Shown here piece by piece: positions 50,385 to 55,135 of a stretch of 64,000 bases of DNA. Location of the stretch: assembly GCA_030680605.1 (NCBI GenBank), contig JAUXUQ010000012.1:22339-86338 (forward strand), in the 5' to 3' direction. The stretch comes from Gammaproteobacteria bacterium (lineage in GTDB: Bacteria > Pseudomonadota > Gammaproteobacteria > SURF-13). Made by a program: the position numbers and the translations under genes. Position 1 is the stretch's first letter, and the number at the start of each line of letters is the position of its first letter. The notes beneath the pieces were generated by a model that was not told where the DNA came from, did no database searches, and saw only the letters and a list, made by a program, of their open reading frames with translations.

Positions 50385-51328
50385 ATCCCGTGGAAGTTCA
50401 GCGCACTGCCCAACCCTCTCTCCTCTGCATACGCTTCCTCGCCCCGCGTTTCTGGCCTACGTGGCTGCTGCTGGGAATAATGTGGCTCATCGCGCAGCTG
50501 CCCTATCGCGCGCAGCTTGCGACCGGGAACATGCTCGGCCGCATGATGTATTACGCCTCGCCGCCGCGCAGGCATATTGCCGCGGTCAACCTGCGCTTGT
50601 GCTTTCCGGAACTCAGTGAACCCGAACGCGCAACCTTGCTGCGCCGCCATTTTGCTTCGCTCGGCATGAGCGCCGTGGAAACGGCCATGAGCTGGTGGAC
50701 GCCGGACAAAAAGTTGCGCCGGCTGGCGCACATCGAGGGCCTGGAGCATCTGGAGCAGGCCGGGAAAATGGGCAGGGGCGTGATTCTGCTCTCCGGCCAT
50801 TTCACCACGCTGGAGATCGGCGCCCGCTTGCTGGTCATGCAGGTGCTGTTCCACGCCATGTACCGCGAACACAAAAATCCGTTGTTCGAGGCCGTGATGC
50901 GGCGCGCGCGCGAACGGCACTGTGAATATGCCATCCCGCGCGGCGACGTGCGCGCCCTGCTCAACAGTTTAAAAATGGGGCTGCCGGTATGGTATGCGCC
51001 GGACCAGAATTACAGCAGCAAGAACACGGTGTTCGTGCCGTTCTTCGGCGTGCCCGCCTCGACCACCACTGCCACCTCACGGCTGGCGCGCATGAGCGGA
51101 GCAGCGGTGGTGCCGTTCTTCCAGCACCGCCTGCCCGGCACGCAGGGTTATGCGCTCACGCTGCTGCCGGCATTGGCCGGGTTCCCCAGCGAAGACGTCG
51201 AGGCCGATACCCTGCGCATCAACCAGCTCATCGAGGCACAGATACGCAAGGCGCCGGAGCAGTACCTGTGGGTGCACCGGCGATTCAAAACGCGCCCAGA
51301 GGGGGTGCGTGATGTGTACACCACCTGA
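50385..51328 (+). CDS. lpxL: Lipid A biosynthesis lauroyl/myristoyl acyltransferase (LpxL/HtrB family)
   Basis: Collinear with E. coli LpxL from FLAPRFWPTWLL to C-terminal YLWVHRRFKTRPEGV. Probable GTG start (track ORF begins 50291). Confidence 0.8.
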
Positions 51329-51524
51329 GCGGACAAGCAATCGGTGTCAAGCGTGGGCAATGACACATCCCCATATACGCGTGTTTTTGTCTGCCCGCGC
51401 GGTTACACCATACCCGCATCCACGCGGGCAGACAAGCCGCCCACCTTACTCGGCTGACCCATTCGGTGAAGGCATTGTGAAGTATAATGCAAAGATCTGC
51501 CCTTACTGATGCTCAGTCCTTGAT

Positions 51525-52928
51525 ATGACCATCCACCCCGTTATCCTATCTGGCGGTGCAGGCAGCCGATTGTGGCCCTTGTCGCGCGAGCATTATCCCA
51601 AACAACTGCTTTGCCTGGTGGGGGAAGGCACCCTGCTACAACAAACCATCACACGACTTGATGGGCTACCCAATATCGCCCCCCCCTTACTCGTCTGCAA
51701 CGAAGAGCATCGTTTTCTCGTGGCGGAGCAAGTGCGACAACTGGGCAAAGAGCCCCTGGATATTATTCTTGAACCGGTGGGGCACAACACCGCGCCCGCG
51801 CTGACCTTGGCGGCTCTTGCATTAACCATGCATGATGCCGATGCCTTGATGCTGGTCATGCCCGCAGACCATGTCATACGACACACAGAGGCATTTCAGC
51901 ACGCCGTGACGGATGCCGCGGGGCTTGCCAAAAACGGACACTTGGTCACCTTTGGCGTGGCCCCAGCCGCTCCCGAAACCGGCTACGGTTATATTAAAAA
52001 AGGGGAAGGTACTGATGTCGCGGCGTTTGTTGAGAAGCCGGATGTGGAAACCGCACAAACCTATCTGGCATCCGGCGACTATCTGTGGAACAGTGGCATG
52101 TTTCTGATGCGTGCCTCGCTCTGGCTGGATGAGTTGGCGCGCTACCGGCCCGATATGTTAAACGCATGCCGCAGCGCTTTTGAGCAGGGAGTCAAGGACG
52201 GAGATTTTTACCGCATCAACAAACAGGCTTTTGTCTCCTGCCCCAGTGATTCGATTGATTACGCAGTGATGGAAAAGACCGAATGCGCCGCTGTTGTGCC
52301 ACTGAATGCGGGTTGGTCGGACATTGGCGCATGGTCAGCGTTGTGGGACGTTTCCGAACAAGATGCCGAGGGGAATGTCACGCAAGGCGATGTTTATATG
52401 CACGCCACGCAGAACGCGCTGCTTATCGCACAGCATCGGTTTCTGGCCGCCGTGGGCCTGGAAGATATCATCGTCATCGAAACATCCGATGCCGTTCTCG
52501 TGGCGCATAAAGATCACGCCCAGAACGTGCGTGAAATCGTCAACCGCCTGAAAGCAGAGGAACGCAGCGAATATCAACAGCATCGCCGCGTGCACCGCCC
52601 TTGGGGATGTTTTGAGGCTATTGACCGTGGAGAGCGGTTTCAAGTCAAGCGGCTCGCCATCAATCCCGGCGCGGCGATCTCGCTGCAAATGCACCAGCAT
52701 CGTGCCGAGCATTGGGTGGTGGTGAAAGGCACTGCGAAGGTTACTTGCGGCGACGAAGAGTATACCTTGACTGAAAATCAATCCACGTACATCCCTATCG
52801 GCGAAAAGCATCGGCTTGAGAATCCAGGTTCTATCCCGCTTGAGATCATCGAGATTCAATCCGGCACCTATCTTGGAGAGGATGACATCATGCGTTTTGA
52901 AGATAACTACAACCGGCACCATCAATAA
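51525..52928 (+). CDS. manC: Mannose-1-phosphate guanylyltransferase / mannose-6-phosphate isomerase
   Basis: 467 aa. [14 protein letters not shown] nucleotidyltransferase motif plus C-terminal cupin PMI domain. Confidence 0.9.
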
Positions 52929-54034
52929 TGACCAGAAAAGCATTGATCACAGGCATCACCGGCCAGGATGGCGCCTATCTTGCCGAGTTCTTGCTGGGCA
53001 AGGGCTACGAGGTGCATGGCATCAAGCGCAGAACCTCTTTGTTTAATACCGACCGCATAGACCATCTCTATCAGGACCCGCACGTCAAAGACCGCCGCTT
53101 GGCCCTGCATTATGGCGACATGACCGACTCCAGTAGCTTGATACGCATCGTGCAGCAGGTACAGCCCGATGAAATATACAATCTCGCCGCACAGAGCCAT
53201 GTGGCGGTTTCTTTTGAGGAGCCTGAATATACGGCCGACTCCGACGCGCTCGGCGCACTGCGTCTGCTCGAGGCCATACGCATTCTTGGGCTGGAAAAGA
53301 AAACCCGTTATTACCAGGCCTCAACTTCGGAATTATTCGGCAAGGTTCAGGAAATTCCACAGCGCGAAACCACGCCCTTCTATCCGCGTTCGCCTTACGC
53401 AGCCGCCAAGCTGTATGCCTACTGGATCACGGTGAACTACCGCGAGGCCTACAGCATGTACGCCTGCAACGGCATTTTGTTCAACCACGAATCACCCACC
53501 CGTGGCGAAACATTTGTCACACGCAAGATCACGCGCGCCTTGGCAAGGATCACGCTTGGTCTGCAAGATTGTCTCTATCTCGGCAACCTCGACGCCAAAC
53601 GCGACTGGGGCCATGCCCGGGACTATGTTGAAGCCATGTGGCTCATGCTGCAGCAGGAACAACCCGAGGATTTCGTCATCGCCACCGGCGTGCAATACAG
53701 CGTGCGCGACTTCGTCAACGCCGCCGCTGAAGAACTCGGCATACACATCCGCTGGGAGGGATCTGGCGTGGACGAGATCGGTTACCTTACCCCCTCTCCC
53801 CTGCGGGGAGAGGGGGTTAAATCCATCGTCCGTGTCGATCCGCGCTACTTCCGCCCCGCCGAAGTAGAAACCCTGCTCGGCGACCCGACCAAGGCCAAGG
53901 AGAAGCTGGGCTGGTCGCCCAAGATCACCTTCGATCAACTGGTGACAGAAATGGTTCGCGAAGACCTGAAAAGCGCCGAGCGCGACGAACTTGTCAAGAA
54001 GCATGGCTACGCCGCTTACGACTGCCATGAATAA
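52928..54034 (+). CDS. gmd: GDP-mannose 4,6-dehydratase
   Basis: 368 aa. [24 protein letters not shown] catalytic motif. Near-collinear with E. coli Gmd. Confidence 0.95.
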
Positions 54035-54980
54035 AGACGCAAAGATTTACGTCGCCGGCCACCGTGGCATGGTCGGCAGTGCGATCGAGCGGCGCCTGCG
54101 CGCGGCCGGCTACGACAACCTGACCACCCGCACCCGCGACAAACTCGACCTCCTCGACCAGCACGCAGTCCACGCGTTTTTGCAGGCCGAGCAGCCAGAC
54201 TACATTTTCATCGCCGCCGCCCGCGTCGGCGGCATCCACGCCAACAACACCTATCGCGCCGAGTTCATCTACCAGAACATGGTGATTGAGACCAACCTGA
54301 TCCATGGCGCACATCTTGCCGACGTCCAGCATCTGATGTTCCTCGGCAGCAGCTGCGTCTACCCGCGCGACTGCCCGCAGCCGATGCGTGAGGAATACCT
54401 GCTCACCGGCCCGCTCGAGTACACCAACGAGCCCTACGCGCTTGCCAAGATCACCGGCATCAAACTATGCGAGGCCTACCGGCACCAGTACGGGCGTGAT
54501 TACATCAGCGTGATGCCGGCCAACCTGTACGGCCCGAACGATAACTACGACCTCGAAACCAGTCATGTGCTACCCGCGCTGATCCGCAAGGCGCACGAAA
54601 CCAAGCTGCGCGACGACCCAGAGATCGTGGTCTGGGGCAGTGGCACACCCAAACGCGAGTTCCTGTTCGTGGAGGACTTGGCCGATGCCTGCGTGCTCCT
54701 GATGGAACACCAGTTCAGGGCGGGGAAGGCCGCGCTGCCCTCACTCATCAACATCGGCTGCGGCGATGACCTCAGCATCCGTGAACTTGCGGAGACCGTC
54801 ATGCAGGTCATCGGATTGACGAGCGCGATTGTTTTCGATGCAACCAAGCCCGACGGCACCCCGCGCAAGCTGCTCGACACCGGCCGCATCAACCAACTCG
54901 GCTGGCGCCCGCGCACCCCGCTTCGGGAAGGCATCCGGCTCAGCTACCAGGACTTCCTGACCACAGGCGCCTCGCGATGA
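54027..54980 (+). CDS. fcl: GDP-L-fucose synthase
   Basis: Starts [20 protein letters not shown]. 8-nt overlap with gmd. Confidence 0.9.
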
Positions 54981-55014
54981 CAATATCCAAATGGCCTCCA
55001 CCCTCTCCAAAATC

Positions 55015-55135
55015 CACCAGTTCATCGAGGCGCAGATACTCAAGGCGCCCAGTACCTGTGGGTGCATCGCCGCTTCAATACCCAGCTGGCCGGTGAGCGT
55101 GACGCGTACACCGCCTGAGTGGGGCAAGCAGCCGG
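55015..55135 (+). pseudogene. Degenerate, frameshifted duplicate of the lpxL 3' terminus plus about 20 bp of its 3' flank
   Basis: About 80 percent identical to 51224..51345 (CAGYTCATCGAGGCRCAGATAC.CAAGGCGCC...AGTACCTGTGGGTGCA...TACACC.CCTGAG), with a 4-nt deletion. Similarity continues past the stop codon. Confidence 0.6.

Follow-up and report, generated by a model that had tools for sequence, protein, structure and literature searches.

A broken second copy of the lpxL 3' end behind a manC-gmd-fcl block: a recombination scar in a variable lipopolysaccharide locus of an uncultured gammaproteobacterium

Modules for the synthesis of guanosine diphosphate (GDP)-L-fucose, manC/manB-gmd-fcl, occur in colanic acid and O-antigen clusters, and fucosyltransferases of family GT10 are represented, for example, by FutA/FutB of Helicobacter pylori. 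In O-antigen clusters, junctions are known to harbor gene remnants, such as those of wzy and the H-repeat in Salmonella groups B1, D1 and D2 (PMC3715488). Homology-facilitated illegitimate recombination joins DNA at microhomologies of 3-10 base pairs (bp) beside a one-sided anchor (PMC6382021); work on this process in natural transformation (de Vries & Wackernagel 2002, Prudhomme 2002, Meier & Wackernagel 2003) is summarised in the same source. Prophage e14, inserted in icd, leaves a displaced icdC 3' fragment, according to the account of this case in Hill et al. 1989 and PMC13626634. Here we analyze a stretch of 64,000 nucleotides (nt) from a gammaproteobacterial metagenome assembly (GCA_030680605.1, contig JAUXUQ010000012.1), called the window below. 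In the window the 3' end of lpxL, a gene of lipid A synthesis, recurs in a broken form behind a manC-gmd-fcl block, next to a gene of a GT10-family glycosyltransferase. We describe the repeat, the junction at which the second copy lies and the variable lipopolysaccharide (LPS) locus around it.

The features that form the repeat and the block between its copies are as follows.

50291-51328, forward strand: lpxL, gene of a late lipid A lauroyl/palmitoleoyl acyltransferase, intact, stop codon at 51326-51328 (PF03279, TIGR02207)
51218-51345, forward strand: repeat copy 1, the final 111 nt of lpxL and about 12-17 nt of its 3' flank (repeat search, blastn)
51346-51524, forward strand: unique spacer of about 180 nt between lpxL and manC (blastn finds no homolog in the fetched loci)
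51525-52928, forward strand: manC, bifunctional mannose-1-phosphate guanylyltransferase / mannose-6-phosphate isomerase (TIGR01479, 711 bits, cutoff 373)
52928-54034, forward strand: gmd, GDP-mannose 4,6-dehydratase (TIGR01472, 599 bits, cutoff 415)
54027-54980, forward strand: fcl, GDP-L-fucose synthase, stop codon at 54978-54980 (NF047922)
54981-55015, forward strand: post-fcl spacer and the first 8 codons of a gene "X" (ATG at 54991), truncated (blastn against contig L165)
55012-55135, forward strand: repeat copy 2, a dead lpxL 3' fragment with about 12-17 nt of flank (repeat search, blastn, tblastn)

The repeat search of the window paired 51218-51255 with 55012-55049 (38 nt, 89% identity, spacing 3794) and 51260-51332 with 55050-55122 (73 nt, 77% identity, spacing 3790). 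The spacing shifts from 3794 to 3790 because copy 2 has a 4-nt deletion: the GGAG found in lpxL at 51256-51259 is missing between 55049 and 55050. When the window was compared with itself by blastn, both parts were joined in one alignment (51218-51339 against 55012-55130, 78% identity over 123 columns, E=9e-23); the overall identity of the two lpxL tails is 78-81%. The repeat is far above chance expectation: its local-alignment score is 52, and none of 1986 other 128-nt tiles, taken from both strands of the window, scores above 12.5. An earlier reading of the letters only (hereafter the sequence-only reading) had reported that the lpxL 3' end and its flank are repeated after fcl, about 80% identical and frameshifted, and both searches bear out the coordinates.

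Copy 2 begins 32 nt past the fcl stop codon and retains a stop codon of its own at 55116-55118. Directly 3' of the 4-nt deletion the copies have in common an identical run of 17 nt, CAGTACCTGTGGGTGCA (51260-51276 and 55050-55066), which corresponds to the conserved QYLWVH motif and is present in many relatives too. Past their first ~17 nt, the spacers behind the two copies (51329-51524 and 55118-55323) showed no similarity in blastn either to each other or to any fetched locus. The Logan assembly of run SRR13727517 (L081) is 100% identical to the window across 53867-61535, including the junction of fcl, the remnant and the GT10 gene. Thus the junction is not a peculiarity of one assembly.

The intact lpxL matches PF03279 over the full length (E=1e-77, model positions 7-295 of 295) and scores 365.3 bits with TIGR02207 (cutoff 297.8). 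The HX4(D/E) motif is catalytic in late acyltransferases; it is visible in the lpxL translation in its HX4E form, as HFTTLE within SGHFTTLE. The real start of the gene is probably downstream of 50291, since the alignments with relatives begin at residue 13-22. The protein is 89% identical to its counterpart in L005, the locus of the closest relative. Upstream of lpxL are waaA and a ubiH-like gene in divergent orientation.

The remnant comprises the last ~36 codons of an lpxL, with the frame lost after codon 13. It lacks the first ~300 codons and with them the HX4E motif, and there is no open frame over the catalytic domain. The remnant keeps QYLWVHRRF, while otherwise invariant residues are changed from N to H, from R to Q and from P to L; tblastn with the lpxL query picks it up in two frames and found no other lpxL-like sequence in the window besides lpxL itself. 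Over 98 aligned coding nt the remnant is 80.6% identical to lpxL of the window and 83.7% identical to lpxL of L005; between the two intact genes, identity over the corresponding stretch (102 aligned nt) is 85.3%. Since its DNA identity to orthologous lpxL 3' ends (81-84%) is near that between lpxL orthologs, the remnant is ortholog-grade, a dead fragment of lpxL and not a second acyltransferase. These values uphold the earlier suggestion of an lpxL 3' end as the source of the second copy. Partial-gene homology, a broken frame and absence from relatives are the marks of a pseudogene fragment or a recombination scar, and the remnant has all of them.

The right end of the block can be read against contig L165 (ENA ERZ27267896 k141_203622), which carries the closest relative of fcl (P0242, 86% protein and 84.7% DNA identity). 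The DNA homology between the window and L165 (84.7%) passes the fcl stop codon and a 10-nt spacer and then covers the ATG and 8 codons of the next gene, X; across the spacer and the start of X the window ATGGCCTCCACCCTCTCCAAAATCC is aligned with L165 ATGACTCCCACCGTCACCAAAATCC. The protein of X thus starts M-[AT]-[SP]-T-[LV]-[ST]-K-I. By a hand count from the alignment, 26 of the 35 ungapped nt of 54981-55015 match L165, and the match is lost from 55016. The window follows L165 to 55015 and lpxL from 55012, with an overlap of 3 nt, ATC at 55012-55014. Because the stub of X (X') is fused to the lpxL fragment at this overlap, the right end of the block is an illegitimate junction and not a clean cassette boundary. 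The sequence-only reading had spoken of a cassette bracketed by the repeats; the repeats do flank the block, but the clean cassette end has to be given up. An open reading frame of 74 codons at 54991-55215 is a read-through fusion of the X' stub and the lpxL fragment and not a gene.

An extension of the lpxL homology leftwards to 54994 (A-x-T-L) was also considered and rejected: there lpxL matches, again by hand count, at ~17 of 32 positions with a 3-nt gap, against the ungapped 26 of 35 for L165.

For comparison, 160 lpxL loci were fetched from GTDB genomes and Joint Genome Institute (JGI) metagenomes with the lpxL query. Only five reasonably close relatives were found, with 76-89% LpxL protein identity, and no match in the metagenome scan exceeded 67%. 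In none of about 165 related lpxL loci is manC, gmd or fcl downstream of lpxL, and no second match to the remnant was found in any of the 170 fetched loci. Two observations had been named in advance as evidence against the earlier reading of the repeats: relatives with the duplicate and without the block, and an intact second acyltransferase in place of the remnant. The former was not seen among the 160 lpxL loci, and the five closest relatives have neither the latter nor any second lpxL copy.

In L005 (~91% DNA identity in the flanks) the homology breaks off at the lpxL stop (51320) and does not return until 58638. Loci L001, L002 and L003 have the same pattern, and each differs in content between lpxL and a conserved trio to the right of the interval: GT4, an ELM1-like glycosyltransferase and an aminotransferase IV. 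Since homology with the relatives is lost at the lpxL stop and regained only near GT4, the variable unit is the whole ~7.3-kilobase (kb) interval from lpxL to GT4 (51321 to ~58640) and not the 3.7-kb block. It had been asked whether in relatives lpxL is followed directly by the genes that are downstream in the window. It is not: the entire 6-7 kb up to the conserved GT4 gene differ in every relative.

To the right of the remnant, the interval and its border contain the following features.

55324-56394, forward strand: gene of a GT10-family (fucosyltransferase-like) glycosyltransferase, full length (PF00852, 35.8 bits, cutoff 23.9)
56549-56962, forward strand: 5' fragment of an FkbM-type methyltransferase gene, residues 6-140 of ~305 (full-length homolog in L001)
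57091-57432, forward strand: 5' fragment of a YrbL-like gene, residues 8-121 of ~239 (partial PF10707 match; full-length homolog in L001)
57615-57935, reverse strand: C-terminal fragment of an IS3-family transposase, rve_3 (PF13683, E=7e-20)
57932-58666, reverse strand: orf244, a gene typical of the locus (homologs in L001 and L005)
58821-59942, reverse strand: GT4 glycosyltransferase gene, the conserved right border of the interval (Pfam annotation on L081)

The interval of L001 holds homologs (39-60% identical) of the GT10 gene, orf244, the FkbM-type methyltransferase gene and the YrbL-like gene. Therefore the GT10 set is typical of the locus, and manC-gmd-fcl is not. The GT10 gene starts 340 nt past fcl. 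Its full-length identity to the L001 homolog is 60%, and the PF00852 match covers the C-terminal domain only. A donor for the right-hand GT10 segment was not found, the best database homologs being at most 66% identical. Exact-protein look-ups of GT10, gmd and a conserved 70-residue zf-CHCC protein returned the same organism's contig only, or nothing. Upstream of the GT10 gene there is a sigma-70-like TTGACA-17-GATCAT at 55212-55240, the single site of note in the promoter and terminator scans; overall the promoter scan is at background level. The GT10 protein is a likely user of the GDP-fucose supplied through manC-gmd-fcl, and the three genes may be co-expressed with it. Together the four genes would plausibly be a self-contained module that fucosylates the LPS outer core or O-chain.

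The right border bears signs of repeated exchange. Identity is patchy there (58-86%), which shows that alleles ~15-40% apart have been exchanged more than once; the divergence of the remnant falls in this range. The GT4 gene is 58-71% identical to L005 at 58896-59500, and identity is then 85-96% in the neighbouring DNA. This border gene is a recombination mosaic, and the interval has been cut and rejoined repeatedly. The IS3 fragment adjoins the orf244 stop codon, where the guanine-cytosine (GC) content of the island has its minimum (0.46-0.51). No insertion sequence (IS) copies or inverted repeats bracket 51.3-55.0 kb, as they would in a composite transposon or an IS-bounded cassette; the fragment at 57615-57935 is the only piece of a transposase. 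No Pfam or NCBIfam family matched orf244. Its ends are 82-85% identical to L005 and L001, and its middle is too diverged for a DNA alignment. L005 has three orf244 copies at 11335-14589, two of them adjacent.

The genes of the block have a lower GC content than their left neighbors: 0.551 in manC, 0.569 in gmd and 0.626 in fcl, as compared with 0.634 in lpxL and 0.640 in waaA. The somewhat lower GC that the sequence-only reading had noted is thus confirmed, but low GC (0.46-0.60) also runs on to ~58750, well past the repeat. As a sign of foreign origin it fails, because manC and gmd have an equally low GC, 0.54-0.57, in all relatives. The manC proteins of the relatives are 86-91% identical to that of the window, and the gmd protein is 87-89% identical to those of L163 and L164. 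DNA identity of manC and gmd to the relatives (77-87%) goes in step with that of lpxL (79-91%). In particular, manC is 77% identical to L163 at the DNA level and lpxL 78.7% identical to L002; these two contigs come from the same metagenome and, we infer, from one organism. By these comparisons manC and gmd are native to the lineage and were relocated.

In L163 (8568-9833) and L162 (1004-2330) manC comes right after a NusG paralog and an HTH_24 gene, at the head of a large polysaccharide (O-antigen) cluster, and in L166 an ops-like GGCGGTAGCGTG is found at ~245-256, upstream of manC. DNA homology between the window and the manC loci of the relatives starts only at the manC start codon, 51525-51535. 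A motif search found no ops element GGCGGTAG near manC in the window, and neither the NusG paralog nor the HTH_24 gene is there. Therefore the relocated genes are without their usual antitermination context. The spacer between lpxL and manC contains a hairpin at ~51386-51437 (14-bp stem, ~24-nt loop) that is not followed by a T-run; the fold of the spacer has z=-3.4. No Rfam family was found at E<=1 in 50-59 kb. In L164 (1-4919; GCA_038923965.1) manC-gmd adjoin a mobile-element-like block (AlpA, RepB-primase/AAA_25), and thus the head of the O-antigen cluster is also a site of rearrangement there.

The ancestry of fcl is separate from that of manC-gmd: its closest relative is the above-mentioned one in L165, and its counterpart in L163 is only 59% identical. 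The fcl score with NF047922, 474.8 bits, is just under the cutoff of 500; it is by far the best match, and the NCBI name is GDP-L-fucose synthase. In L165 (3-3282) fcl (GC 0.60) adjoins a gmd fragment (GC 0.48) and a C-methyltransferase-like gene (GC 0.41). There, too, fcl looks like a mosaic import.

We regard the remnant as a recombination scar, an ordinary feature of a variable LPS locus. As to how it arose, the account that we favor, and hold to be probable though far from secure, is that the remnant is the leftover of an orthologous lpxL allele at an illegitimate junction, formed when two diverged versions of this hypervariable locus were joined. There would have been a single exchange between a version lpxL-manC-gmd-fcl-X... 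and a version lpxL-GT10-... of the locus. The block manC-gmd-fcl-X' was joined at ATC to position -111 of an lpxL, while a complete lpxL was kept upstream. On one side, in or upstream of lpxL or else in orf244/GT4, the exchange would have proceeded by homologous recombination, and on the other side by illegitimate joining guided by microhomology. Most of the ~20% by which the copies differ would then be allele divergence that existed before, with later decay of the dead copy added to it. As the outcome, a GT10 fucosyltransferase-like gene of the LPS locus now has a complete GDP-L-fucose pathway immediately in front of it.

The 3-nt ATC overlap falls within the 3-10-nt microhomology range of homology-facilitated illegitimate recombination, and the mosaic patches in orf244/GT4 are compatible with an anchor on the right side. 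Either side may have been the anchor; the lpxL identity profiles do not distinguish which copy of the tail was the resident one. The entry by recombination downstream of lpxL that had been proposed earlier is kept in part. The block at this position is peculiar to this genome, and recombination at the lpxL 3' end is a sensible cause. What has changed is that the right junction is illegitimate and that manC and gmd are native to the lineage.

Several observations weigh against joining of two alleles. Both copies have the C-terminal tail Y-T-[T/A]-stop and the immediate 3' flank in common, and L005, L001, L002 and L004 are without these. Thus the two tails may be each other's closest relatives, which would fit an old in-situ duplication too. 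The 12 changes specific to the remnant split 2:4:6 by codon position, which is too few sites and fits both origins. At 54994-55005 the window matches lpxL and L165 equally (8/12), so the join could lie anywhere within 54994-55015, perhaps in a broader patch of microhomology. The sliding identity of lpxL to L005, L001 and L003 falls gently at the 3' end (for L005 from ~93% to ~85% over the last 200 nt, with the same drop for L001 and L003) and shows no sharp crossover. Finally, neither lpxL-manC nor a same-strand lpxL-GT10, the arrangements expected of a donor or parent, was found in the databases searched.

The in-situ duplication just mentioned is the rival that we take most seriously, while still considering it unlikely. 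It starts from an ancestor with lpxL-manC-gmd-fcl-X, in which codon 8 of X became joined to lpxL position -111 through tandem duplication or through an insertion with a long target duplication. The second block would then have been deleted or replaced by the GT10 segment, and the tails, initially identical, would have diverged, one under selection and one neutrally. The tail "TAC ACC xCC TGA G.GG" with ~15 nt of flank is unique to the two copies, unlike L005, L001, L002 and L004, as this scenario predicts. A tandem duplication of 51218-55015 would give exactly the X'::'lpxL junction, and among polarised substitutions the remnant has 12 derived changes and an indel against 6 derived changes in the intact copy, as expected if one copy is dead. 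However, the joining of diverged alleles is preferable because it needs two events, as compared with at least three for the duplication (relocation, duplication, and a precise replacement ~17 nt past the stop codon of the remnant). The duplication also requires ~12% of neutral decay in a small fragment amid full remodelling around it. Its assumed ancestor is present in no relative, and the window has no second manC, gmd or fcl.

The remaining alternatives are of far lower probability. The layout resembles that of e14 in icd (PMC13626634), with an intact gene, an insert and a diverged direct 3' fragment, so that the repeats might be attL and attR of a site-specific integrating element directed at the lpxL 3' end and equipped with a replacement tail; the 17-nt run identical in both copies would suit this. 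However, only manC, gmd and fcl lie between the repeats, with no integrase or recombinase; the rve_3 fragment is 2.5 kb outside. The right junction is within the eighth codon of another gene and hence is no element end, none of about 165 lpxL loci has an insert in the lpxL tail or a duplicate of it, and the 17-nt run is merely the conserved QYLWVH motif. We hold such an element to be extremely improbable. Hardly better, and still very improbable, is the earlier proposal that a tandem lpxL paralog (lpxM/lpxP-like) lost its 5' part to the insertion of the cassette. Some distant relatives (L036, L105, L119, L144, L148) do have two late acyltransferase genes at the locus. But those genes are only 31-35% identical at the protein level and lie upstream of lpxL (in 4 of the 5 between waaA and lpxL), not downstream, while the fragment is 81-84% identical at the DNA level to orthologous lpxL tails and shares even the flank past the stop codon; the five closest relatives, again, have one copy. 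For similarity by chance or a chimeric assembly, the only point in favor is that the source is a metagenome assembly. The E-value of 9e-23 and the local score of 52 against at most 12.5 in the background speak against chance, copies that are only ~80% identical could not mislead an assembler, and the right junction recurs in the separate Logan assembly; this alternative has practically no weight.

A functional role for the repeat is also conceivable, namely that the two lpxL tails are a built-in excision switch for manC-gmd-fcl, and we would give it only a slim chance. If it were so, a crossover in the 17-nt run would delete the three genes and leave an in-frame chimeric lpxL ending ...QYLWVHRRFNTQLAGERDAYTA. 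This would be a one-way population toggle between fucosylated and non-fucosylated LPS, akin to the excision of e14 that regenerates icd from icdC. It is unlikely that such a crossover has a functional role. More generally, LPS modules that carry a replacement tail with them might dock preferentially at the lpxL tail.

The remnant opens no new biological question. It provides a base-level example of the rebuilding of an LPS locus in uncultured bacteria, with a datable scar and a mapped microhomology junction, and it places a sugar-nucleotide pathway that normally heads an O-antigen cluster beside a matching transferase near lpxL. Two points also call for caution in annotation. Low GC is found in manC and gmd throughout the lineage and is no trace of recent foreign origin, and the open reading frame at 54991-55215 consists of two fused gene stubs.

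Compared with the systems described at the beginning, the locus is a new instance of a junction remnant, from an uncultured gammaproteobacterium, and its junction is resolved unusually well. As in e14/icd, there is an intact gene, an insert and a diverged direct 3' fragment, and if the copies recombined with each other, the insert would be excised and an in-frame chimeric gene would remain. Unlike e14, the block is without an integrase, an att core and element ends, and the insert consists of three metabolic genes and a gene stub. The enzyme set is that of the known GDP-L-fucose modules and here stands beside a GT10-family transferase gene. In contrast to those modules, it lies directly after lpxL, in the neighborhood of 3-deoxy-D-manno-oct-2-ulosonic acid (Kdo) and lipid A-core genes, without the NusG-paralog/ops control seen in the relatives. 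With homology-facilitated illegitimate recombination the junction shares a 3-nt microhomology between the unrelated X' and 'lpxL beside a possible homologous anchor. The more usual product of that process is a deletion, whereas in the window part of the anchor gene, its tail, is duplicated; no anchor crossover can be seen, and no donor was found. The O-antigen clusters of Salmonella likewise have dead gene pieces where blocks of different ancestry meet, with IS fragments nearby, low GC and mosaic divergence. Unlike those remnants, the one described here comes from a flanking housekeeping-type gene, lpxL, forms a direct repeat with the intact gene and belongs to an uncultured gammaproteobacterium.

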